From: an uncultured Candidatus Saccharibacteria bacterium
Lineage (GTDB): Bacteria; Patescibacteriota; Minisyncoccia; Phycocordibacterales; SBAW01
Assembly (NCBI GenBank): GCA_964566795.1
Contig: CAZMIU010000001.1
Span: 333,091-397,090 of the forward strand
DNA: 64,000 bases
Direction of reading: 5' to 3'
The translations under genes and the position numbers were made by a program. Below are positions 1 to 48,301 of the stretch, in pieces; positions within the stretch are counted from its first letter, which is position 1, and each line of letters opens with the position of its first letter. Under the pieces are notes generated by a model, which ran no database searches, was not told where the DNA came from, and saw nothing but the letters and a program-made list of their open reading frames with translations.

Positions 1-73
1 CCATCACCTCATATACGGCAAAGGCGATAACAAAGCCCAGGCACAACACCGCCACATAAATAAGCGCACTCAT
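1..73 (-). CDS. Partial (N-terminal) hydrophobic membrane protein; the gene continues beyond the window start.
   Basis: The reverse complement of 1-73 reads ATG AGT GCG CTT ATT TAT GTG GCG GTG TTG TGC CTG GGC TTT..., translating to MSALIYVAVLCLGFVIAFAVYEVM, a TM-like N-terminus. Palindrome copy 1 lies about 47 bp upstream. Confidence 0.25.
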   Translation of the reverse strand, partial: MSALIYVAVLCLGFVIAFAVYEVM

Positions 74-119
74 CGCCCCTCAATTCTAAACCCTCTTTTC
101 CCCTCCAACTTCTATGCTA

Positions 120-135
120 GTGTTTTGCAAAACAC
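120..135. promoter_or_regulatory. Copy 1 of the 16-bp perfect palindrome GTGTTTTGCAAAACAC, a putative ArsR-family operator.
   Basis: Exact palindrome read in the sequence. It lies upstream of the minus-strand gene that starts near 73. Confidence 0.5.
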
Positions 136-154
136 CAAAATAACAGCACTTGAA

Positions 155-430
155 TTAAAGTAGACGCAGTGTAAAGGAAACTTTGTCTTTGTCGTATATC
201 CCCTCCTTTTGCCGCACCTGCGCCTTGAGCGGCAAAAGATACGTGCCCGACTTTTTGTCGGGGAATATAGATGTCTCCCAGTTCGTTTTGCCAAGCGTGA
301 CTCCGACACGAAGCGAGCCCCACCCTTTTGCCACCTTACCAAAATCCTTTTTTATCGCTTGCGACTCTTTAGCGGGCACACTTATAAAATGCCACCCGGC
401 CATGCCCGGATAAGCCCACACCTGACTCCG
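155..430 (-). CDS. DUF1905-like small protein.
   Basis: ORF 155..478. The motifs WHFISVPAKESQ...GWGSLRVGVTLGKTNWETSIFPDKKSGTYLLPLKAQVRQKEG resemble the DUF1905 family. The start is uncertain (M at about 430 or 478). Confidence 0.45.
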   Translation of the reverse strand, partial: RSQVWAYPGMAGWHFISVPAKESQAIKKDFGKVAKGWGSLRVGVTLGKTNWETSIFPDKKSGTYLLPLKAQVRQKEGIYDKDKVSFTLRLL

Positions 431-484
431 CATCTTGTATATCCTCTTTGCCGCCATGGTCGTCCAATAATACCCCACCCACCC

Positions 485-781
485 TTATGTTAGTGTTTTG
501 CAAAACACCAGAATAGACTCCCCGAGTGGCGTTATTTTGTGGCGCACGGATGAGCCCTCGTTGCGCTTCATGACTAACCCCGCAATGGCTAGCTTGCGGA
601 TATGATCAGAAGTATTTATATACCCGATATCCAAATGTTCGGATATGTCGGCGACAGAAAGCTCCGGAACCCGCTTGACCAGCTCCAAAATCTCGACGCG
701 CCTGTGGTTTGCAGCGCCCTTGAGCACCCTCTCTATCCTCCTGAAATATATCTGCTTGCTTTGCGACATGGCGCGCATCAT
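485..781 (-). CDS. ArsR/SmtB-family HTH transcriptional regulator.
   Basis: 98 aa. It carries an ArsR-type wHTH: RVEILELVKRVPELSVADISEHLDIGYINTSDHIRKLAIAGLV. The palindromic operator sits immediately upstream (793-808) and at the 3' end (493-508). Confidence 0.8.
   Translation of the reverse strand: MMRAMSQSKQIYFRRIERVLKGAANHRRVEILELVKRVPELSVADISEHLDIGYINTSDHIRKLAIAGLVMKRNEGSSVRHKITPLGESILVFCKTLT
493..508. promoter_or_regulatory. Copy 2 of the palindrome GTGTTTTGCAAAACAC.
   Basis: Exact 16-bp palindrome. It overlaps the arsR-like stop and lies upstream of the DUF1905 gene start. Confidence 0.5.
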
Positions 782-792
782 ACAGTGTTCTA

Positions 793-808
793 GTGTTTTG
801 CAAAATAC
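793..808. promoter_or_regulatory. Copy 3 of the palindrome (GTGTTTTGCAAAATAC, one mismatch), part of the 22-mer CTAGTGTTTTGCAAAATACTAG.
   Basis: It lies about 10 bp upstream of the ArsR-family gene start at 781, which suggests autoregulation. Confidence 0.5.
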
Positions 809-897
809 TAGAACAGATTTGTGGTATGTTGCCAGATAATAATAAATATTGTATTATGCTACATAGGTAAGCACACCCAAAACGCGCGGAGGACCAC

Positions 898-1323
898 ATG
901 CGCATCCTACTCTCCTCTATCAGCCTTCTTGTACTGATCCTCGCACAACCGGCACAAGCCTATTCGCCGACAATCAAAGCCGTAGAAGCCGCAGTGCATT
1001 TGGCATTCGGGTATAGTCTGCCCGACGAGTTTGATCCTGCGGCGATACAGCACACGTTGTGCGATAAGCCCAAGGCCGGCAAGGCCAAGTGCAGCAACGA
1101 GATCGGCGCATTCCAGGACAGGCAGATCGAGATACTGTCTTATCTTGAAATGGCCAAGGAGGCGGAAATCGCGGGGAGTCAGGAGATGCTCAACGAGACG
1201 CTCACAAAGCTGAGCGCAGCTTTGGGAGCGTACCGCTCGAGCCTTAGGACATGGTACGGCAGCAATATTGGCAAGATAAAGGATATTCCTATCCCGCCGC
1301 TGCGCCCAGCCGCAAAAAATTAG
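898..1323 (+). CDS. Secreted hypothetical protein with a signal peptide.
   Basis: The N-terminus MRILLSSISLLVLILAQPAQA is signal-peptide-like. No recognisable domain. Confidence 0.45.
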   Translation: MRILLSSISLLVLILAQPAQAYSPTIKAVEAAVHLAFGYSLPDEFDPAAIQHTLCDKPKAGKAKCSNEIGAFQDRQIEILSYLEMAKEAEIAGSQEMLNETLTKLSAALGAYRSSLRTWYGSNIGKIKDIPIPPLRPAAKN

Positions 1324-1369
1324 ACCGCGCCTGCGCGGCACCTGCCCCGCCATCTTAAGATGGCGGGGT

Positions 1370-1594
1370 TTACTTTTCGTCAACTGAAAAGAGTTTAGAC
1401 GGGCTCGTGTGGCCTGAGATAAGCCGCACACGGGCAAGCGGCACGCGCAGGTGCGCGGCCACTACCTCTTGCACGCGCTTGTTGGCCAGGTTGCGCTCGG
1501 CGGGCGCCTTAACCCATACCTTAAGCCGGCCGCGGGGCAGGACCTCTAGCTTTTCCTGCCTAGCCCCAGCGACCACGCGCACGCTTATATACAT
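1370..1594 (-). CDS. DUF167 / YggU-family protein.
   Basis: ISVRVVAGARQEKLEV...LKVWVKAPAERNLANKRVQEVVAAHLRVPLARVRLISGHTSPSK matches the YggU/UPF0235 pattern. The start is probably the internal M, which gives about 75 aa; the long ORF extends to 1639. Confidence 0.55.
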   Translation of the reverse strand: MYISVRVVAGARQEKLEVLPRGRLKVWVKAPAERNLANKRVQEVVAAHLRVPLARVRLISGHTSPSKLFSVDEK

Positions 1595-1628
1595 GTCATT
1601 ACCGTACACCCAAAATTTCTTTATACCA

Positions 1629-1644
1629 GTGTTTTGCAAAACAC
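1629..1644. promoter_or_regulatory. Copy 4 of the palindrome GTGTTTTGCAAAACAC.
   Basis: Exact palindrome upstream of the DUF167 gene. Confidence 0.5.
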
Positions 1645-1733
1645 TAGATACCTACGCCCGGCTAGAAGTCTAGCCGGGCGTTTTCTTTTGTGATATCTTG
1701 CTCTCAGCACAAACCAGAAACAGGAGTTCCTTA

Positions 1734-22554: not shown

Positions 22555-23838
22555 ATGGCAAACGTATCTATCAAGTACGTCTCTATCGACGTGCTTAAAC
22601 CCGCGGCGTATAACCCGCGCAAGATCTCGCCAGAGGCCCTGGCGCAGCTCAAAGAGAGTATCGCCAAGTACTCTGTGGTCGACCCGTTAATCGTCAACTC
22701 CGCTCCCAAGCGCAAAAACGTGGTCATTGGGGGCCATATGCGCCTTAGGGCGGCCAAAGAGCTCGGGCACAAGGAGATACCGGTCGTGTATCTCAATATC
22801 CCCGACATCAAGAGGGAGAAAGAGCTCAATCTTCGCCTGCACAAGAACATGGGCGAATTCGACTTCGATCTCCTCAAAAAGCTCGATTTCGACCTCTTGC
22901 TCGATGTAGGGTTCGACAAGGACGCTCTCAACGACATCTGGGCAGAGCAGCTTAAATCGCGCTCCGATGCCTTCGATGTCGATAAGGAGCTCAAGAGCAT
23001 CAAGAAGCCGCAGACGCGGCTGGGCGACCTCATACTCCTCGGCCCGCACAAGCTCTTGTGCGGCGACTCGACCAAGCCCGAGAACTTAGAGCACCTGCTC
23101 GGCGACGAAAAGGCGGCGATGATATTCAGCGATCCCAAGTACAACATCAAGTTGGACTACAACGGCGGGGTCGGCGGCAAGAAGTCCTACGGCGGCAAAG
23201 TCGACGATAACCTATCCGACGAGAAGTACCGCGACTTCCTCAAGGCCAGCATGGAGGCAGCACTCGCGGTCACGCAAGAGGACGCGCATATCCTGTACTG
23301 GTGCGATCAGACCTATATCTGGCTCGTGCAATGCCTCTACCGCGACCTCGGCATTGCCAATAAAAGAGTTTGCATCTGGCTCAAGAATGGCCAGAACCCT
23401 ACCCCGGGCGTAGCCTTCTCCAAGTGCTACGAGCCCTGCGTATATGGCGTGCGCGGCAAGCCGTACCTCAATAAGAAGCTGACTAAGCTCAATGAGGTGC
23501 TCAACGCCGACACGACAACGGGCAACAGCCTGCTAAGCGAATCGCTCGACCACCTGGATGTATGGGCGGTCAATCGCGTGCCCGGCAAGGACATGGAGCA
23601 CGCGACCTCGAAGCCTCCGGCACTGTATGAGAAAGCGATAAGGCGCTGCACAAAGCAGGGAGACATAATCCTGGATTCCTTCTCCGGCTCGGGCAGCACA
23701 CTTATTGCGGGCGAGCAGACAGGCCGCAAGGTCTACGCGGTCGAGCTTGAGCCTATCTTTTGCGACCTCACCATTCGTCGATATGAAGCGCTAACAGGCA
23801 CAAAGGCCAAGATTATCCGCTCCGATGAAGAAGTCTAG
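22555..23838 (+). CDS. ParB-like nuclease domain fused to a beta-class N6/N4 DNA methyltransferase.
   Basis: ParB N-domain: VSIDVLKPAAYNPRK...GGHMRLRAAKELGH. MTase motif IV variant FSDPKYN lies before motif I ILDSFSGSGST, the beta-class order. Fusions of this kind are typical of phage and plasmid orphan MTases. Confidence 0.8.
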   Translation: MANVSIKYVSIDVLKPAAYNPRKISPEALAQLKESIAKYSVVDPLIVNSAPKRKNVVIGGHMRLRAAKELGHKEIPVVYLNIPDIKREKELNLRLHKNMGEFDFDLLKKLDFDLLLDVGFDKDALNDIWAEQLKSRSDAFDVDKELKSIKKPQTRLGDLILLGPHKLLCGDSTKPENLEHLLGDEKAAMIFSDPKYNIKLDYNGGVGGKKSYGGKVDDNLSDEKYRDFLKASMEAALAVTQEDAHILYWCDQTYIWLVQCLYRDLGIANKRVCIWLKNGQNPTPGVAFSKCYEPCVYGVRGKPYLNKKLTKLNEVLNADTTTGNSLLSESLDHLDVWAVNRVPGKDMEHATSKPPALYEKAIRRCTKQGDIILDSFSGSGSTLIAGEQTGRKVYAVELEPIFCDLTIRRYEALTGTKAKIIRSDEEV

Positions 23839-25234: not shown

Positions 25235-25469
25235 TTGCTCTAGCGGGTTTTAGAGCGACGGAGTAAGCCCAAATCAAAAGGCTCCTGGCCATCGCGACAG
25301 AACCTTTCGGCCCTGCCCATAGCGGTTTCCCGATATGACCCGCTAGAGTGACTCTGACCAGGAGTCCTTTGATCTCTAGCGGGATTTTCGACCTTGCCGC
25401 AACAGGATGTTACGGGGTAGGCCCTTTTATATAATTGTCCGTAATACGATGCTATGTATTACGCCCTTG

Positions 25470-26114: not shown

Positions 26115-27434
26115 ATGGAATTATCAACCAAAGTCCCTATAGGGACGGTAGTCCCATTATCAATAGAAAAAGTTAAGTACGCCCTGTATGCCCGCAAGTC
26201 GACCGAACAGGACGAGCGGCAAGCATTATCCATCGACTCCCAAATAAAGGAGATGTTGGCAGTAGCAGAGCGAGAGGATTTGGACATTATAGATATCCGG
26301 CGAGAATCCCATTCAGCAAAAGAATCAGGTCAAAGGCCAGTGTTTAAGGAACTGCTAGAAGACATAAGACGAGGCAGATTCAACGGGATACTTACCTGGA
26401 ATCCCGATCGCCTAAGCCGCAACGCAGGCGACCTTGGCTCCGTAGTAGACCTCATGGACCAAAAATTGCTAGTCGAAATCCGTACTTATGGGCAGCATTT
26501 CCGCAACTCGCCCAATGAGAAGTTCCTGCTCATGATTCTGTGTAGTCAGGCGAAGTTAGAGAACGATAATAAAAGCATTAATGTAAAGCGCGGCCTCAAG
26601 ACAAGGGTGGAAATGGGCCTATGGCCCTCTCCTGCTCCAACTGGATACTTAAAAGAAAAGAGGATGGACCGGAAATGCGAAACCATCATAGACCCCGCCA
26701 GGGCACCGGTCATCAAACAAATGTTTGAGAAGGTGGCCTACGAGAAATGGAGCGGCCGCAAAGTCTACAACTGGCTCAAGTTCGAGCTTAACTTCAAGAC
26801 CCCAGGCGGCAATAAAAACCTGACGCTCAGCAACGTCTATATGTTGCTCCAAAATCATTTTTACTACGGCGTATTTGAGTACCCCAAAAAGTCCGGCCGC
26901 TGGTATCAAGGCAAGCACGAACCTCTTATCACCAAAGAGCTATTCGATTTAGTCCAGACGCAAGTCAAAAGCCAGTTTGTAAGGGCTGAGAGCAAGGAGT
27001 TTGCCTTTACAAAACTTATGGAATGCGGCTTATGCGGCTCTGGTATTACCGCTGATGAGAAGTTCAAGAAGCAGAAGAATGGAAATACCCACCGGCATGT
27101 CTATTATGGATGCACAAAAGCGAGGGACAAGAATTGCAAAGGCGGGTATATAAACGAGGTGGTGCTGATTGAACAGTTTGTCGGGCTGATGGATACAATA
27201 GACCTAAACGAGATCGGGATCAAAGAAAAGATAAAAGCAGAGGTAGAGAGATTTAAGAAGTTTCAACAGTCAGTCCTAGGAGCCAAGGCCAAAATACAAG
27301 TAGCTGATATCGACATCCGCAATTACGCAAAATATCTTCTACAAGAAGGTGCCCCTATTGAAAAAAGAGAACTTCTATCTTGCCTCAAAAGTAAAATGCT
27401 ACTCAAAGAAAAGAACATATATTTAAGTCAGTAG
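26115..27434 (+). CDS. Large serine recombinase with a resolvase/invertase catalytic domain, a recombinase domain and a zinc ribbon.
   Basis: N-terminal catalytic domain: YALYARKSTEQD..., with the Ser nucleophile in the RKST context. Zinc ribbon: CGLCGSGI...YYGCTKARDKNCKGGY. Confidence 0.85.
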   Translation: MELSTKVPIGTVVPLSIEKVKYALYARKSTEQDERQALSIDSQIKEMLAVAEREDLDIIDIRRESHSAKESGQRPVFKELLEDIRRGRFNGILTWNPDRLSRNAGDLGSVVDLMDQKLLVEIRTYGQHFRNSPNEKFLLMILCSQAKLENDNKSINVKRGLKTRVEMGLWPSPAPTGYLKEKRMDRKCETIIDPARAPVIKQMFEKVAYEKWSGRKVYNWLKFELNFKTPGGNKNLTLSNVYMLLQNHFYYGVFEYPKKSGRWYQGKHEPLITKELFDLVQTQVKSQFVRAESKEFAFTKLMECGLCGSGITADEKFKKQKNGNTHRHVYYGCTKARDKNCKGGYINEVVLIEQFVGLMDTIDLNEIGIKEKIKAEVERFKKFQQSVLGAKAKIQVADIDIRNYAKYLLQEGAPIEKRELLSCLKSKMLLKEKNIYLSQ

Positions 27435-28078: not shown

Positions 28079-29962
28079 TTAAGCGTTGTATAGACGTAGG
28101 CCATTAAGGATGACAAGTATCGCAACGCCAGTATCAGCCATGATGGCAACCGGCAACGTAGCAAGACCGAATACAGCCAGCAATATAAATACTGCCTTAG
28201 CTAAAAGAGCAGCTCCTACATTTTGCTGTATTGTGCGAACTGTCCTCCTACTGAGCGAGACAGTTTCTGGAATAGCCTGCAAGTTGTCGTTCATAAGTGC
28301 AATATCGGCAGTCTCAATAGCGACATCTGATCCCTGTGCGCCCATAGCAATACCAACATTTGAGAGCGCGAGTGAGGGAGCGTCGTTTACACCGTCGCCC
28401 ACCATGGCCACTGAGCCGTACTTTTCCTTTAGTTCCCTCACCTTCTCTACCTTCTGTTCAGGAAGGAGAGAAGCATGGGACTCATTTATACCCACTCGCG
28501 CTGAAACCGCACTAGCGGTATGTTCGTTGTCTCCAGTCAACATGACAGAAGTAAGGCCTAAGTCTTTAAGTCGACCAATAACTGACTTCGATTCGTCTCG
28601 CACCTTGTCGGCAATGGCCAATGCTCCCATTACCTGCTTACCCTCGCTGATAAGAACGATGGTCTTGCCCTCACGCTCTAGCGGTTCAGTCTTTTGGAGC
28701 ACCTCTTTGGTCGGTATATCATGCGCATCCATAATCTTCGGGTTGCCTACGCAATGCTCTACATCGTCGCAGACCAGACAAACAGCCTTGCCGCCCTTGC
28801 CCGGGATATTTTCATACCTAGACATATCATGCGGGACGATTCCCTTTTCCTTAGCAAAAGCAAGAATGCTCTTGGAAAGCGGGTGCGAGGAGAACTGCTC
28901 CAGACCTGCGGCATCTTCAAGCACCTGCTTTTCGGTAAAACCCTCGAATGCAATGATGTCTGAGACGTACGGTTCGCCGCGAGTTAAAGTACCCGTCTTA
29001 TCGAACGCGATTGCTTTTACTTTCTTCAGCTCTTCCAGATACTTGCCGCCCTTAATGAGAACCCCTCTGCGCGAGGCTCCCCCAAGCGCGGAAGTAATGG
29101 CTACTGGTGTTGCTATGACCAGGGCACAAGGACATGCAATGACGAGAAGAATAAGGGCGCGGGAAAACCAAAGAAGGAACGGCTCCCCTAGCGCAAGCGG
29201 AGGAACAATTGATATGACAGCTGCAATACCGATCACGGACGGAGTGTAGTACTTGGCGAAACTGTCGATAAACTCCTGTGCCGGTGCCTTAGCCTTTTGC
29301 GCTTGCTCGACAAGCGATACAATCTTAGCAAAAGTAGAATTCTTACTTTCTTTTGTTACCTTGATTTCCAAGTAGCCTTGCTCGTTAAGCGTGCCGCCAA
29401 ACACGGCATCGCCCTCGCGCTTGTCCTTTGGTATGGGCTCCCCAGTGATGGTCGCTTCGTTGACTGCCGATATACCCTTAGTTATAAGGCCATCGAGCGG
29501 TATCATCTCGCCGGGCTTTACTGCAACAACCGTGTCGACTGTGACATCGGCAATTGGCTTAGTACTGCCATCCAGGAGCGTCGCGGTTTGTGGCGACTTA
29601 TGCAACAAAGCTTCGAGCGCCTTGCGCGACCGTCCTACTCCATAATCTTCCAGCGCCTCCGAAAGCGAGAAGAAGAAAACAACTGCTGCGGCTTCGGGAA
29701 GTTGGTTTATAAATATCGCCCCTATTGTCGCAATCACCACGAGAAAGTCGATATTGAGGAAACGTTGTTTAAGGAGCCCCTTAAGAGCGCCTAGCACGAC
29801 GTAGATACCGCCGGTCGCTATGCCGGTGAAGTACAGAGCGGTAAGAATCGCTGGCGAGATGGCGAAGAACGACAGTACGAAGGCCGCACCGGTAAACAAA
29901 CCGGAGATTATAGTGAAAATCTTTTTTAGGTCGAGATTCATATATACGTTTGAGTTAATCAA
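28079..29962 (-). CDS. P1B-type heavy-metal-translocating ATPase with a CPC motif, Zn/Cd/Pb- or Cu-type. It has no N-terminal HMA domain.
   Basis: ACPCALVIATP (TM6 CPC), [19 protein letters not shown]. Confidence 0.85.
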   Translation of the reverse strand: MINSNVYMNLDLKKIFTIISGLFTGAAFVLSFFAISPAILTALYFTGIATGGIYVVLGALKGLLKQRFLNIDFLVVIATIGAIFINQLPEAAAVVFFFSLSEALEDYGVGRSRKALEALLHKSPQTATLLDGSTKPIADVTVDTVVAVKPGEMIPLDGLITKGISAVNEATITGEPIPKDKREGDAVFGGTLNEQGYLEIKVTKESKNSTFAKIVSLVEQAQKAKAPAQEFIDSFAKYYTPSVIGIAAVISIVPPLALGEPFLLWFSRALILLVIACPCALVIATPVAITSALGGASRRGVLIKGGKYLEELKKVKAIAFDKTGTLTRGEPYVSDIIAFEGFTEKQVLEDAAGLEQFSSHPLSKSILAFAKEKGIVPHDMSRYENIPGKGGKAVCLVCDDVEHCVGNPKIMDAHDIPTKEVLQKTEPLEREGKTIVLISEGKQVMGALAIADKVRDESKSVIGRLKDLGLTSVMLTGDNEHTASAVSARVGINESHASLLPEQKVEKVRELKEKYGSVAMVGDGVNDAPSLALSNVGIAMGAQGSDVAIETADIALMNDNLQAIPETVSLSRRTVRTIQQNVGAALLAKAVFILLAVFGLATLPVAIMADTGVAILVILNGLRLYNA

Positions 29963-30341: not shown

Positions 30342-30913
30342 GGTATTTGTAGCGCACCTAGTAAATAGACGAAAGTAAAGATAAAAATCCATATAATATC
30401 AAGAAAGTGCCAAAACAAGCTTAGGCACGATAGTTTGCGCAGTGTAGCAGCTGTAAGGCCGCGCACCGCAACATGCACAAGCAGAACAACTATCCATAAC
30501 GATCCGATCAGCACGTGCAATCCGTGTGCACCTACTAGAGCAAAGAATGAAGATAAAGAGGCGCTTTTGTCCGGGCCATATCCCTCCAATATGAGATTTT
30601 TAAATTCGCTTACTTCCATGGCAAGGAAAGCGGCACCTAGAAGGAGGGTTACCGCGAGTGCTGCAATGACCCACTGCTTCTTTTGATTGTGAGCCGCGAC
30701 CATGGCAAGCCCTATCGTAAAACTACTTGTCAAAAGAATCATCGTTTCTATGAGCACAAAAGGCAGACTGAACAGTTCTCCGGGCTCCGGAGTGCCAAAT
30801 GTCGCGCTTCGCAGTACTGCATACGTGGCAAAAAGCCCTGCAAAGAGCACGCAGTCGCTCATGAGGTACACCCAGAAACCGGAAACTACTTTGTCGTCAG
30901 AGTGTTCTTTCAT
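30338..30913 (-). CDS. cyoC: Heme-copper oxidase subunit III (quinol oxidase type).
   Basis: 191 aa, five TM helices. [28 protein letters not shown] and [16 protein letters not shown] are typical of CyoC/CtaE. Confidence 0.75.
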
Positions 30914-32829
30914 GTTATTTTCTCTGCGGGAAGGACATATTCGATCTTGTCGTTAAACGAACGGACAACAAGGCAGGCAAATACTCCGACGATACCGAGA
31001 ACGGCAAGCCACCATATGTGCCAAATCATTGCAAAACCAAAGCAAAGGCTGAGGCCTGCGATGATAAAGCCGACAGAAGTGTTAGCGGGAAGATGGATAT
31101 CCTCGCGGGCGCTGGGTACGCCTTCTCTGGACTCTTTCATTGTCCAAAAAGCATCCTTCCCGCTCACATGCGGAATGCTGGAAAAGTTGTACTCCGGCGG
31201 GGGCGAAGTAGTAGACCATTCAAGCGTTCTCCCGTTCCATGGATCGTTTCCAGCGATATTTTGCTTTCGCTGTCGGACACTTACGACAATCTGGAGAACT
31301 TGGAAAAATACTGCAAGCGCAATGACACACGCTCCAATAGCAGCAACTATCAACAACGGTTGCCAACTTGCGTCTACCTGCGAAAGACGGCGCGTCATTC
31401 CCATGAGCCCCAGTGCATAGAGCGGGATAAAGGCAAGCAAGAATCCGACGATCCAGCTCCAAAACGCGTATCTGCCTAAACGTTCGTTTAGCGTAAAACC
31501 GAACATTTTAGGGAACCAGTAAACAAACCCTGCAAAAAACCCGAAGAGCACACCGCCAATGATCATGTTATGGAAATGCGCGATTACAAACAAACTATTG
31601 TGCAGCTGGAAATTCACTCCTGGTATCGACAAAAGAACGCCTGTCATGCCACCAAGCACGAAAGTCGTCATAAAACCCATAAACCATAGCATCGGAGTCT
31701 TAAAGATAATTCGACCTCGAAACATAGTGAAAAGCCAGTTAAATACTTTTACTCCTGTTGGAATCGCGATGACCATCGTCATAATACCGAAGAAGGCATT
31801 TACATTAGCGTTGGTGCCCATGGTAAAGAAGTGGTGTCCCCACACCATGAATGAGAGTACGCTTATAAGAAGCGTCGCAACGACCATGGAGGTGTACCCG
31901 AACAATCTTTTTTGGGCAAACACGGGTACGATTTCAGAGAATATACCGAATGCTGGCAAAATAAGTATGTAGACTTCCGGATGACCCCATGACCAGATAA
32001 GGTTGACGTACATCATAGCGTTGCCGCCGAGGTCAGTGGTAAAAAAGTGCATGCCAAAAATGCGGTCGAGTGACAGGAGGCCGAGCGTGGCGGTAAGAAT
32101 AGGAAAGGCAAAAATAACCAGAATCATCGACCCGAGCGTGGTCCAGACAAATACCGGCATGCGCATAAGAGTCATTCCGGGTGCACGCATTTTAATAATC
32201 GTGATGAGGAAGTTGATACCTGAAATGAGCGTCCCGGCACCTGCGACTTGCAGTGCCCAGATATAGTAGTCGACGCCAACACCGGGACTGTATTGAAGTT
32301 CTGAGAGCGGCGGATATGCAAGCCAGCCGGTAGCAGCAAATTCTCCTACGACCAGAGAAAGATTGATGAGTATAGCCCCCGCAACCGTGAGCCAAAAGGA
32401 AACCGAGTTAAGAAAAGGGAAAGCTACATCTCGACTGCCAATCTGGAGTGGCAGTATGTAGTTTATGAGGCCGAACATAAATGGCATAGCCACGAAAAAG
32501 ATCATGATTATTCCGTGGGCCGTAAACACTTGGGAATAGTGTTCCGGGGACAAATATCCTGTGTTTTCTCCGGCCGCTAAAGCTTGTTGCGCGCGCATCA
32601 TAAAAGCATCCGTAGCGCCTCTCGCTAGCATGACCGCAGAGAGGAGTAAATACATAATGCCTATCTTTTTGTGATCTACAGACGTAATCCACTCTTTCCA
32701 AAGCCACTTCCAGCGCTTGAAATAGAACAGCAACCCTACCACCGCGACCACACCAAGAATTACAGTAAATTGAGCAACCGTCTCAATCGGTCCGTGTATG
32801 AATGCGTCTAAGGTAATTTTGCCAAACAT
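30910..32829 (-). CDS. cyoB: Heme-copper oxidase subunit I (cytochrome bo3 ubiquinol oxidase subunit I-like).
   Basis: 639 aa. Conserved His ligands in [20 protein letters not shown] and FHNMIIGG, with about 14 TM helices. The size and the C/D-type neighbours favour the quinol oxidase. Confidence 0.85.
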
Positions 32830-40606: not shown

Positions 40607-41827
40607 TCAGTGCCCGCCTCCACTTTCTATTTTTCCGTCAAAAATCGTGGGGTCTGCCTCTCCCTCTACGCGCAAAAGTCCCCACGCGCCGCGGTCGAGT
40701 CGGGCAAGCGCATGGTCGACAAGCATATAATTTCCGGGGTAGTCGGCTTTGAACTCAACCACCGCGGCACCGCCGGCGGGAATGAGGGTCGTCTGTATGC
40801 TTCGCGCAGGAGGACTCACAATATCTCCCTCGCGATATACGCGGTCAAATATCTCCCCGATTACATGAAAGCTTGAAATGAGATTGACGCCGCCGTTTCC
40901 TACGTAGAGGCGGACGGTCTCCCCGACTTTGACATTCATGTTGTTCTGCAATGCTCCTGTTTTTCCGTTAAAGACTATGTATTGCGGCTTCCCGTCGAGC
41001 ATCGCTTGTGCGTCAAACAACTGCAGTCCCTTTCGACCCAATTCCCCGGATGTATAAAACTCTCCCTGCATCACGTAAAACTCTTTATCGACCGGAGGCA
41101 ACCCTTCTTTTGGCTCGATGAGAATGAGCCCATAGAGTCCGTGCGCCATATGACTCGGCACATTAGGATGAGCACAATGGTATACGTACAAGCCGGGATT
41201 AAGCGCTTTGAAACGGAATGTTTTTGATTCTCCTGGGGCGACGTTCGTCGCAGGTGCTCCGCCGCCTGGCCCATTAACCGCATGTAAATCAATGTTATGC
41301 ATATGGAGGCTCGTCTTGTCGTTATGAAGCGTCAATTCGACCGTGTCGCCCTCGCGAGCTCTCAAAAACGGCCCCGGCACGGTGCCGTTGAACGTCCAGT
41401 AGTTGAGAGTGACCCCGGGAGCAATTTCAGAGATGACTTCTTTTGTGGTAAGTTCCATTTTGACCGTCTGCGGTTCCGAGCGATTAATTGGCGGTGGAAT
41501 GTCCGCGGGATTTTTTGCTATGTCGGGAACTCGCTCGAAGGAACCGAAATTCCTGAAGAACTGAAGTACATTTTTGAAAGGAAGAACGGGGCCTTCGCTC
41601 GGGCCGAACGTTTTAAGAGAAAAAGGATACTGAAAAGCGTTTGGTATTCCGTTTGGAACGTAAAATGCAAGAGAAACCCCGACAAATATTGCCACAAGCG
41701 CCGCGGTAAGCTTCCACGAATGGAACTGACGGAGCACGAGAAAAATGAAAAGAGCCGCAAAAAAATACGCAATAGCAAGACCGAATGCCTGCACGATGTA
41801 TTGCCAAAGGTAAGAAAGTAGTTCCAT
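40607..41827 (-). CDS. nirK: Copper-containing nitrite reductase (NirK-type two-domain multicopper protein) with N-terminal TM helices.
   Basis: LHNDKTSLHMHNIDLHAVNGPGGG (T2Cu His) and YVYHCAHPNVPSHMAHGLYGLILIEP (T1Cu Cys/His/Met). An N-terminal 60-aa hydrophobic anchor. Confidence 0.8.
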   Translation of the reverse strand: MELLSYLWQYIVQAFGLAIAYFFAALFIFLVLRQFHSWKLTAALVAIFVGVSLAFYVPNGIPNAFQYPFSLKTFGPSEGPVLPFKNVLQFFRNFGSFERVPDIAKNPADIPPPINRSEPQTVKMELTTKEVISEIAPGVTLNYWTFNGTVPGPFLRAREGDTVELTLHNDKTSLHMHNIDLHAVNGPGGGAPATNVAPGESKTFRFKALNPGLYVYHCAHPNVPSHMAHGLYGLILIEPKEGLPPVDKEFYVMQGEFYTSGELGRKGLQLFDAQAMLDGKPQYIVFNGKTGALQNNMNVKVGETVRLYVGNGGVNLISSFHVIGEIFDRVYREGDIVSPPARSIQTTLIPAGGAAVVEFKADYPGNYMLVDHALARLDRGAWGLLRVEGEADPTIFDGKIESGGGH

Positions 41828-45458: not shown

Positions 45459-47753
45459 TTACAATCGTTTGGCTTTGATTCTAAGCGAATTCGACACTAC
45501 GGATACTGACGACATTGCCATAGCAAAACCTGCAAAGACAGGGTTCAAGAGCCACCCAAATACCGGATATAAAGCCCCAGCCGCAAGAGGAATGCCTACA
45601 ATATTGTAGATGAATGCCCAGAAGAGATTCTGCTTGATGCCGCGCATAGTGATCTTTGAAAGTTTGATCGCCTTTACAAGCTTCGAAATATCGCCACCAA
45701 GAAGGGTGATACCCGCCGATTCGATGGCAACATCGGTCCCGGTCCCCATGGCAATTCCCACATCTGCCTGTGCAAGTGCTGGTGCATCGTTTACGCCGTC
45801 ACCCGCCATGGCGACTATCTTGCCTTGCGACTGGAGTTCCTTAATTTTATTGAGCTTATCCTCTGGGAGTACGTGAGCCATCACCTCATCAATCCCCACG
45901 AGTGATGCGATGTACTTTGCCGCTCTTTCGTCATCTCCCGTGAGCATAACCACCTGTATGCCGAGCTTGTGAAGATTCTTTACGGCCTCGACTGACTCCG
46001 CTTTTATCTCATCAGCAACCATAACGAACCCGAGTACTTTTTCTCTAGTAGCGAGAATGACTGGGGTCTTTCCTTGCAAGGTAAATTCATTAAGTCTAGC
46101 GACATCAAATGGAAGTTTGAGATCGCTTACGAGCTTTACATTACCAACAAAATACTCATCGGTATCAATAACCCCGCGCAAACCCTTGCCTTGTATCCCC
46201 TCAAAATCGGAAACGCTCGACAATGGGATATTTTTCTCTTGTGCGTACTGTACAATCGCGTGCGCAATCGGATGCTCTGACTTCTTCTCAAGCGATGCGA
46301 GAATTGATACAAGGGCATCATCTTTTAAATCTGAGAGATTCTGTATATCGACTAGGGTGGGTTTGCCTTTAGTGATCGTTCCTGTTTTATCAACCACAAC
46401 CGTATTCACCTTGTGGAGTTTCTCAAGCGTAGCGGCATCTTTAATGAGAATACCTTCTTTGGCCCCCTTACCGACTCCTACGATAATTGCCGTCGGTGTT
46501 GCGAGTCCGAGCGCGCACGGGCACGCAATTACGAGAATTCCCACAAAGGATACAAGGCCGAATGACAAGGCCTGAGAGAACCCAAGATACTGCGACCCAA
46601 CGATAAGCCATGCTCCGAGAGTAAGAAAAGCGATTACGAGAACGATGGGCACAAATACCGCCGATATTTTATCCGCAAGTGCTTGTATGGGGGCACGACT
46701 TCCTTGAGCATCTTCAACCATCTTGATAATCTGGGCGAGGAGTGTTTCTGATCCAACTTTGGTGGCCTTGAATGTGAAGGAACCACTGGTATTGATTGTC
46801 CCGGACACGACATTGTCACCAAGCTTTTTCTGGGCTGGCATCGGCTCACCGGTAACCATAGATTCGTCGACGAAGGAACTTCCCTCGGTAATAACGCCAT
46901 CGACAGGGATCTTTGCTCCGGGCTTAACGATAATAAGATCGCCATGTTTAACATCGTTTACTGAAATTTCCAATTCTCTTCCTTCACGGATAACTAACGC
47001 CGTTTTGGCCTGAAGATTAAGAAGTTTCTCAATGGCATCACCTGTCTTTATCTTTGATCGCGCCTCGAGATATTTTCCAAGCGTAATAAATGTAATGACT
47101 ACGATTGTCACGTCGTAGTACTGGTAGTCAACGTTTATAAATGGACGAAGAACATCCTCAAAAGCACTGACTGCAAAACTGTATAAAAAGGCTGCAACCG
47201 TGCCGATGCCGATAAGCGTATCCATGTTCGCCTTGCCATAGCGGAGGAATCTATAAAAACCGAGAAGATAGGGTTTGCCAACGACAAACAAAATGTATGT
47301 GGCAAGTATTGGAAGCAGGTGATGAAAAAATTCTTTGAGCGTATAGCTCATTGCGGGAGCGATACTGTATTCAGCGAGTATGTCCCAGCCCATGACAAAG
47401 GCGGCGAAAACGGCGATGGGAATAGCTGATAGCACTTTTATTCGCATATCCGCTACTTCCGCTAGCTTTTCTTTCTTGGACTGGTTGAGACCCAGGTGTG
47501 ACGCGTGTTCACTTGGAGACATCCCCATTTCTTCGGCACTAGTCGGAACTTCTAGGGAATATCCGAGTGGTTCAATATGCTTGGAAAGGTCATGAGGATT
47601 TGTTTTTGATGGATCAAAAGAAACCTTTGCTTTTTCTGTACCATAATTAACTTCCGCGGAATGTACGCCCTCCACCTTCTTAAAAGTCTTCTCGATTACC
47701 GAGGAGCACGAGGCACAATGCATTCCTTTGACTCTGTATGTTTGTGTATGCAT
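45459..47753 (-). CDS. copA: Copper-translocating P1B-type ATPase.
   Basis: N-terminal HMA domain ([13 protein letters not shown]), CPC in [28 protein letters not shown]. 764 aa. Confidence 0.9.
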
Positions 47754-48226: not shown

Positions 48227-48301
48227 TGGCTGCGGGACTAGGACTCGAACCTAGATAACAACATTCAGAGTGTTGCGTCCTACCATTAGACGATCCCGCA
48301 A
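48227..48301 (-). tRNA. tRNA-Gln(CTG).
   Basis: Hand-folded: acceptor TGCGGGA/TCCCGCA; anticodon stem CAACA/TGTTG with loop CTCTGAA (anticodon CUG); T-arm CTAGG-TTCGAGT-CCTAG. The discriminator and CCA are encoded. Confidence 0.85.

Follow-up and report, generated by a model that had tools for sequence, protein, structure and literature searches.

We analyze a 64-kb stretch of DNA (hereafter the window) from an uncultured Candidatus Saccharibacteria bacterium. Its left end carries four copies of a palindrome and a small gene of the ArsR/SmtB winged-helix fold (485-781, minus strand). The gene probably encodes an autoregulated repressor with a local cluster of four promoters, the palindromes being the predicted sites of the protein. 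On the best reading, this regulator/site pair belongs to a phylum-wide, apparently undescribed family. In accordance, full-text literature searches, motif string included, find no description of the pair.

The predicted target is the 20-34 bp palindrome yTATnC-TAGTGTTTTGCAAAACACTA-GnATAr, to which the protein would bind as a presumed homodimer or, possibly, as a pair of dimers. In the regulator's promoter, TTTGCA at the center of the site would serve as the -35 box, with TAnnnT 16 nt further on and the ATG 6-7 nt later, giving a leaderless mRNA. Because the palindrome center coincides with the -35 box, binding should repress the regulator gene, shutting off its transcription. A second predicted site, in the last seven codons of the regulator (helix alpha-5), sits just upstream of the putative promoter of the next gene, and two further ones precede the putative promoters of the DUF2726 and DUF167 genes. 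Since sites are positioned before four promoters, the ArsR-like, DUF1905, DUF2726, and DUF167 genes are predicted to answer to one protein. We infer binding, repression rather than activation, leaderless starts, and control of the three neighbors from the sequence, which alone does not decide between repression and activation of the DUF1905, DUF2726, and DUF167 genes.

Palindrome copies and predicted promoters in the window

The 16-mer GTGTTTTGCAAAACAC is present without mismatch at 120-135, 493-508, and 1629-1644, and with one mismatch, as GTGTTTTGCAAAATAC, at 793-808, in agreement with the initial annotation. Beyond these four, the 64-kb window contains no match with up to two mismatches. 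The mean expectation in shuffled sequences is 0.03 matches, and 0 of 100 shuffles reaches four. The 20-mer TAGTGTTTTGCAAAACACTA fits each copy with exactly one mismatch (118-137, 491-510, 791-810, and 1627-1646). The spacings between the copies (373, 300, and 836 bp) track gene lengths. This irregularity, which had already been recognized, rules out a CRISPR array, and the sole CRISPR match in Rfam has an E-value of 5.8.

Copy 1 (TAGTGTTTTGCAAAACACCA, 118-137) is located between the stop codon of the DUF1905 gene (155) and the start codon of the DUF2726 gene (73), with its center ~54.5 nt upstream of the latter. It is kept in three same-species contigs from other samples (L001-L003) and in L128, a close, 97%-identical relative. 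Copy 2 (491-510) occupies the last codons of the ArsR-like gene (I-L-V-F-C-K-T-L-T-stop), and its center is ~43.5 nt upstream of the DUF1905 ATG (457). Copy 3 (TGTTCTAGTGTTTTGCAAAATACTAGAACA, 786-815) is a 30-bp palindrome with one mismatched pair. It is positioned at the regulator's own promoter and also upstream of a divergent plus-strand gene (898-1323). Copy 4 (CAGTGTTTTGCAAAACACTA, 1627-1646) is centered ~42.5 nt upstream of the DUF167 ATG (1594), and one of its half-sites is degenerate in L128. The three same-species contigs hold the same four copies, and L128 retains all four sites and the gene order. Further copies are absent from an 18-kb same-species contig, which gives a total of 4 copies in ~74 kb.

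The four genes are adjacent and small, and each has its own predicted promoter. They had been described as consecutive, but the plus-strand gene at 898-1323 lies between the ArsR-like and DUF167 genes. It encodes 141 residues with no Pfam match and, by eye, a signal-peptide-like N-terminus. Pfam confirms the identities given to the DUF1905 gene (155-457, minus strand; E=1e-23; longest open reading frame 155-478), the ArsR-like gene (HTH_5/HTH_27), and the DUF167/YggU gene (1370-1594, minus strand; 74 residues; E=1e-14; longest open reading frame 1370-1639). The gene at the window edge (5' end at 1-73, minus strand) is indeed partial, but the supposed membrane protein is actually the N-terminus of a 166-residue DUF2726 protein (length in L001; PF10881 in L001, L002, and L128). 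Of three reading frames said to end in LVFCKTL, only the ArsR-like gene is credible. The second (112-342, minus strand) overlaps the DUF1905 gene in another frame, and the third (1407-1673, plus strand) is antisense to the DUF167 gene.

We pick start codons by homology and -10 boxes, which gives ATGs at 73, 457, 769, and 1594. The 20-mer edges are then 44, 33, 21, and 32 nt away, respectively, replacing the range of 10-50 bp that had been derived from the longest open reading frames. On the minus strand, the regulator promoter (804-777) reads TTTGCA, a 16-nt spacer, and TATGAT. The -10 box TATGAT (777-782) ends 7 nt before the likely start codon (769-767), from which 94 residues are encoded; the longest open reading frame encodes 98. 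The annotated N-terminus MMRAM is probably untranslated, because the first two ATGs overlap the -10 box. The same TTTGCA/-10 geometry is present in homologs of the regulator. In 34 of 38 regulator genes, TAnnnT is located 4-9 nt (mostly 6-7 nt) before the ATG, compared with a background of 8.6% over all ATGs of these loci. The modal distance between the 20-mer and the ATG is 20-21 nt, and the palindrome center is near -31. A TAnnnT box 6-7 nt before the ATG suggests that the regulator mRNAs are probably leaderless. Shine-Dalgarno sequences are missing at regulator loci with TAnnnT boxes (e.g., L026, L033, L035, L049, L086, and 767-782 of the window), and the mRNAs from promoters in these genomes seem to be leaderless.

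The other three genes have -10-like elements, read from the sequence, namely TATTAT at 472-467 (9 nt before ATG 457), TAGAAT at 88-83 (9 nt before ATG 73), and TACGGT at 1606-1601 (6 nt before ATG 1594). The -35 regions of these promoters are poor. The DUF167 start, MYISVRVV, agrees with L027 and L055, and DUF167 is linked to the regulator also in L027, L055, and L130. The flanks TAGnAT/TTATGC are unlikely to form a self-contained bidirectional promoter, since the -35-like match is poor and few genes (e.g., DUF167 in L055) are rightly spaced.

The window copies have little potential to form hairpins (-8 to -10 kcal/mol, z -1.1 to -2.9), which favors a duplex-DNA site in the window. An intrinsic terminator is rejected, because the stems are AT-rich and lack a 3' U tract, the flanking T run being 5' and the A run 3'. 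A terminator scan picks up copy 3 only, with 3 GC pairs and a poor tail. Rfam gives no match at the gathering threshold, nor, except noise, at E-values up to 10. A separate GC-rich 12-bp hairpin followed by TTTTCTTTT (1654-1690, plus strand) is located between copy 4 and a plus-strand gene (1734-2330). There is no upstream plus-strand gene needing termination, and the region differs in L128. This hairpin may serve as a leader attenuator or mark where a short transcript ends.

The ArsR/SmtB-fold protein and its two flanking palindromes

The regulator matches PF01022 HTH_5 (30.3 bits, cutoff 22) and PF13463 HTH_27 (32.3 bits, cutoff 22.2). A phmmer search against PDB sequences returns CzrA, CadC, and HlyU at E-values of 7e-5 to 3e-4. 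The AlphaFold2 model (predicted local distance difference test score 91.8) contains helices 2-23, 26-37, 43-50, and 54-66, strands 70-75 and 78-83, and helix 85-96. The order of these elements, alpha1-alpha2-alpha3-alphaR-beta1-beta2-alpha5, is that of ArsR/SmtB. The best Foldseek matches are CadC, HlyU, ArsR, CzrA, SmtB, and SqrR, with template modeling scores of 0.68-0.80. As modeled, the regulator is a bona fide ArsR/SmtB fold. The protein is a winged helix of 90-98 residues without any other domain, catalytic or not, and Pfam finds winged-helix families only.

Operators of the ArsR/SmtB family are of the 12-2-12 type. Like the known repressors of the family (CzrA, SmtB, CadC, and ArsR, and the non-metal HlyU, BigR, and SqrR), the regulator is small and presumably dimeric, shares their fold, and has a long inverted repeat over its own promoter. 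Unlike them, it lacks metal ligands and has a single cysteine, a second predicted operator is encoded in its own alpha-5 codons, and the core of its palindrome is constant over many lineages, with in-frame copies in unrelated housekeeping genes.

In alignment with CadC and CzrA, neither the alpha-3N CXC nor the alpha-5 DxH...HxxH ligand set is present. The regulator reads ELSVADIS where CadC reads ELCVCDIA, and after the wing it holds only TPLGESILVFCKTLT at the position of the CzrA tail, which we take to be DDIHVATMLKQAIHHANH. Metal sensing is thus disfavored, and a metal or oxidant signal is unsupported. The ligands define the metal-sensor subset, not the ArsR/SmtB fold family. The single cysteine is invariant and is encoded by TGC at the exact center of the palindrome. 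Therefore, it may reflect a constraint on the DNA, being kept for DNA rather than protein reasons.

We find 363 homologs of the regulator, of which the 120 listed are 60-78% identical over 79-115 residues, with one exception at 97%. The named ones among these 120 are Patescibacteria. A filter-free search yields 383 representatives of the wider family. All homologs with usable flanks have one palindrome upstream and one over the last codons or stop region, 288-328 bp apart. These spacings track gene length with no obvious 10.5-bp phasing, which does not favor looping with helical phasing of the two sites. Only these two copies are universal; those of the DUF2726 and DUF167 genes are lineage-specific.

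Paralogs at 35-65% identity (L021, L037, L047, L054, L057, and L103) have the same layout with different palindromes, including TCTAACGTTTTGCAAAACGTTAGA, CCAACATTCTGCAGAATGTTGG, and TTTGTTAATTCAnTTGAATTAACAAA, and different recognition helices, indicating that protein and site co-vary. These variant palindromes occur in extra copies elsewhere too. The co-variation is the strongest computational evidence for the predicted recognition of the palindrome by the protein. It also upholds part of the ArsR-operator reading of the initial annotation, in that the palindrome behaves as a cognate site: it flanks all homologs examined, co-varies with the protein, and overlaps the regulator's own -35 box.

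The 3' copy encodes I-L-V-F-C-K-x-L, which forms helix alpha-5 (residues 85-96), and the peptide ILVFCKxL is found in 107 of the 120 listed homologs. Across 30 diverged genes (37-60% GC), the tail codons are CTA in 29/30, GTG in 26/26, TTT in 30/30, TGC in 29/30, and AAA in 30/30, whereas the gene bodies use CTA, GTG, TTT, and AAA for Leu, Val, Phe, and Lys at 8%, 45%, 50%, and 53%, respectively. The frozen synonymous positions indicate that the stretch is constrained as nucleic acid, beyond the protein. In the most distant paralogs, the site is just 3' of the stop codon and the tail has no cysteine. The 3' copy of one distant paralog (L054, 6560-6640) is split at its center by a GC-rich hairpin (GGCCGATA-TCAATTC-TATCGGCC), forming a ~60-nt stem-loop directly after the stop codon.

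No conserved partner gene accompanies the regulator across the loci compared. PIF1 helicase and MsrB are often nearby, and in this clade lexA is located 1.5-7 kb from the regulator (L001, 15141-15812; L129, 3597-4283; L130, 4627-5298). Among control genes located up to 8 kb from palindromes, the most frequent Pfam family is Peptidase_S24, a domain of lexA (5/140), with LexA_DNA_bind at 4/140.

Copies across Patescibacteria and competing explanations

Scanning one genome per species (596 Gb) for exact matches to an 18-mer finds at least 118 genome stretches, ~100 of them from Patescibacteria. The matches listed include Kaiser-, Sacchari-, Parcu-, Moran-, Taylor-, Zambryski-, Wolfe-, Lipton-, Adler-, and Nomurabacteria, Paceibacterota, and Minisyncoccia. 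Among those listed, 18 matches are outside Patescibacteria, in unrelated phyla, compared with ~17 estimated by chance. With mismatches allowed, the matched loci contain at least 173 sites, and the fetched loci give at least ~4-11 copies per metagenome-assembled genome (MAG). A metagenome scan, on a set that in part shares its origin with the MAG set, adds at least 132 unique sites. The 20-bp core is identical in copies from many named Patescibacteria lineages. The extended consensus given above derives from 162 aligned sites and often continues into T-rich and A-rich arms; its n positions in the two arms are complementary in 67% of sites, compared with 35% expected. The 18-mer has no match in IMG/VR viral contigs, which argues against a phage or mobile-element origin. 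A high-copy repetitive extragenic palindromic (REP) element is ruled out, since the copies are far too few; the initial annotation had associated such an element with hundreds of sites. Three copies on one Zambryskibacteria contig (L043, 5278; L079, 2552 and 3731) have ~20 nt of near-identical left flank, and two of the three also have a common right flank, indicating that larger palindrome-containing units were duplicated within one genome.

This distribution changes one part of the initial annotation. A compact ArsR regulon had been proposed, but the 20-mer is not private to the locus, only the regulator-flanking copies are universal, and the neighbors are of mixed function.

Some copies are positioned inside genes, where the whole 30-nt unit is always in the frame (H/Y)-x-S-V-L-Q-N-T-x-I (17/17 host reading frames listed from the genome scan and 18/18 metagenome candidates, a few of these reading frames looking spurious). 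Hosts confirmed by Pfam are TsaD, IscS-like Aminotran_5, MiaA (IPPT), Sua5, TruB, TatD, PyrC-like amidohydrolase, Mur ligases, and HhH-GPD glycosylase. Metagenome hosts, assigned from peptide context alone, are PyrC-like, IscS, TatD, TsaD, MiaA, and TruB and, by eye, also alanyl-tRNA synthetase and a PurN-like formyltransferase. The hosts are thus biased, mainly toward tRNA modification and nucleotide synthesis; none of TsaD, IPPT, Sua5, TruB, Aminotran_5, PyrC-like, and TatD reaches the two-member list minimum among 140 control genes from the same loci. In tsaD, the element is found in two different variable loops or 68 nt upstream, and element-bearing TsaD has extra residues compared with element-free orthologs (a visible indel). 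In miaA, it is inside the gene or 15-22 nt past the stop codon, and a tryptophanyl- or tyrosyl-tRNA synthetase (TrpRS/TyrRS) gene has copies on both sides. Between orthologs, the 30-nt unit is 87-100% identical, compared with 59-81% in the flanking 90 nt, indicating that the in-frame copies are maintained and not decaying.

Within the window, the operator model fits best, because the hairpins are weak, the four copies precede promoters, and the closest relative keeps all four. Several observations weigh against it. The palindrome centers are at unequal distances from the four ATGs (~-31.5, -42.5, -43.5, and -54.5), and a clear overlap with core promoter elements is found only at the regulator's own site. 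In the fetched loci, where a crude longest-reading-frame caller makes context classes approximate, sites fall nearly at random relative to gene orientation (58 tandem, 26 convergent, and 18 divergent), and at least seven well-supported copies are between convergent genes, where no promoter is expected. Genes starting toward a site are functionally mixed (106 Pfam families in 61 genes, with at most two genes per family); in the absence of a dominant family, a coherent regulon among them is rejected. Site-to-start distances are even over 9-180 nt, with no peak outside regulator genes, and ~10-15% of copies are in-frame within long housekeeping genes. The convergent and in-frame copies are not expected from a plain promoter-operator model. 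In addition, the motif reaches 34-42 bp with co-variation of position n between the arms, which a hairpin or a copied element fits as well as a symmetric dimer does.

The in-frame and gene-linked copies favor a cis function that would be independent of position in the transcription unit; examples are a roadblock, looping, and an mRNA hairpin. Auxiliary operators and roadblocks inside genes (lacO2 in lacZ, galOI in galE, cre/CodY) are similar in that a repressor site in a coding sequence could loop or block elongation, and such action would explain both the in-frame copies and the copy at the 3' end of the regulator. They differ in that the known ones are degenerate sites in existing codons, whereas here whole palindromic 30-nt units add residues. 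We tentatively entertain, as a possibility well behind the local repressor, a Patescibacteria-wide system in which the ~30-nt palindrome for a minimal ArsR-fold protein is a portable control module. It would be placed at the regulator's own promoter, in its alpha-5 codons, and in-frame in loops of tRNA-modification (tsaD, sua5, miaA, truB, and iscS), aminoacyl-tRNA synthetase, and nucleotide-synthesis genes, the intragenic copies acting as an elongation roadblock or a strand-independent mRNA hairpin.

The best surviving alternative, which we consider unlikely, is a dispersed low-copy repeat, similar to REP or Rickettsia palindromic elements (RPE), copied into spacers and tolerant protein loops. 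The winged helix would be its dedicated binder, and the window copies would not be operators. The indifference of the placement to gene orientation, the mixed function of the neighbors, and the copies between convergent genes agree with this explanation. So do the in-frame units, which always use the one hydrophilic open frame, SVLQNT, and the tsaD copies, which are in variable loops and add residues. The gene between two copies recalls the layout of REP and REP-associated tyrosine transposases (RAYTs), or the terminal repeats of insertion sequences, and the three Zambryskibacteria copies on one contig have >20 nt of flank in common. However, copies are few (at least ~4-11 per MAG), IMG/VR viral contigs have none, and the core is constant across lineages. 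The same families recur with copies at different positions (tsaD and miaA), unlike the 140 control genes, which looks like selection for gene association. Together with the stricter conservation of intragenic copies than of their flanks, this argues against decaying selfish DNA.

Comparison with known repeats gives a similar picture. REP/RAYT systems also have short spacer palindromes, often at the 3' ends of genes, a cognate-protein gene between two copies, and co-variation of element and protein between lineages. However, they reach hundreds of copies, whereas the palindrome here has a core conserved across classes and in-frame copies, and it flanks a non-catalytic winged helix rather than a Y1 (IS200/IS605-type) transposase. 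RPEs are likewise in-frame palindromic insertions in loops that tolerate extra residues, but they are ~100-150 nt long, compared with 30-42 nt here, where the copies are also held at high identity, the hosts are biased, and there is a dedicated (predicted) binding protein.

A second alternative, to which we assign a low probability, is that the functional form is an RNA hairpin acting anywhere in the mRNA on stability, processing, termination, or translation, the protein binding RNA or merely sharing the sequence at its own gene. Given a perfect palindrome, an identical ~15-bp stem closed by a UGCA loop would form in transcripts of either strand. The folding energy of the consensus 42-mer is -24 kcal/mol (z -9.6), the n positions co-vary, and many copies are directly past 3' ends or between convergent genes. 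The association with tsaD, miaA, and TrpRS/TyrRS is independent of position, and one variant family has A5 on one flank and T5 on the opposite one, resembling a bidirectional terminator. In the main family, however, the stem has T runs on its 5' side and A runs on its 3' side, leaving no free U tail, and the stems are AT-rich. The best conserved copy is the one upstream of the regulator, which the predicted leaderless transcript does not include. Folding of the window copies is weak, Rfam has no match, ArsR-fold proteins are duplex-DNA binders, and symmetric changes in the arms are equally expected for a homodimer with drifting specificity.

Marks of chromosome organization (similar to parS/ParB, matS/MatP, or AspA) for segregation, condensation, or domain structure, with autoregulation a side function, are highly improbable. 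Multi-lineage conservation, few copies, tolerance in coding sequences, and one copy inside the binder's gene are properties of parS and spo0J, and the regulator weakly resembles AspA of pNOB8, an ArsR-like winged helix whose palindromic binding site is upstream of its gene (E=0.003; root-mean-square deviation 0.9 over 68 columns in Foldseek), but ordinary ArsR-family repressors match better, the 90-residue fold has no ParB-like, CTPase, or coiled-coil domain and no conserved ParA or other partner gene beside it, the sites appear scattered or in loose groups on the few large contigs (259 and 72 kb, judged from 8-kb blocks), and their ties to specific recurrent gene families are unexpected for positional marks.

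Neighboring features and significance

The slot downstream of the DUF2726 gene, just left of window position 1, holds differing restriction-modification or nuclease genes in otherwise near-identical contigs. It contains two C5 methylases and an HNH protein in L001 (8979-12317), an N6_N4 methylase and a ResIII helicase in L002 (4847-8874), and an Endonuclease_7 protein and a LexA_DNA_bind-methylase in L128 (6250-7889). The slot beside the palindrome cluster is a strain-variable defense slot.

Further into the window, positions 18000-48300 form a low-GC block (0.45-0.49, compared with 0.55-0.60 elsewhere) that ends at tRNA-Gln (48227-48300). The block contains a ParB_N and N6_N4 methylase fusion (22555-23838), a large serine recombinase (26115-27434), two P-type ATPases (28079-29962 and 45459-47753, the latter with an HMA domain), a COX1 heme-copper oxidase (30910-32829), and a multicopper oxidase (40607-41827). 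A LOOT RNA (25296-25423, minus strand) is located ~700 nt upstream of the serine recombinase gene and matches the full-length Rfam model RF03000 (70.7 bits, gathering threshold 46.4). The block resembles an integrated island whose copper and oxygen genes are unusual in a Patescibacteria-like genome.

As a kind of system, ArsR-family autoregulation through a palindromic operator is already known. What appears to be new is the identity of the 20-bp core across many named Patescibacteria lineages, the overprinting of a predicted operator on the regulator's own alpha-5 codons, and the maintenance of in-frame copies in tRNA-modification and nucleotide-synthesis genes. A large part of bacterial diversity belongs to Patescibacteria (the Candidate Phyla Radiation); to our knowledge, these bacteria have few recognizable transcription factors, and their gene regulation is almost wholly uncharacterized. 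The 120 listed homologs and the constant core provide a directly testable factor-and-site pair, together with sequence-level evidence for leaderless promoters and what the codon usage suggests is a clear example of a coding tail that is at the same time a DNA site. The in-frame copies are kept more strictly than the surrounding codons and, if functional, represent either an unusual form of gene control or an unusual domesticated repeat. The motif is usable as a marker for Patescibacteria contigs, and the regulator promoter is a candidate regulated promoter for the few genetically tractable Saccharibacteria. If the portable palindrome module is real, it would show that extremely reduced genomes can wire a regulon in a new way.

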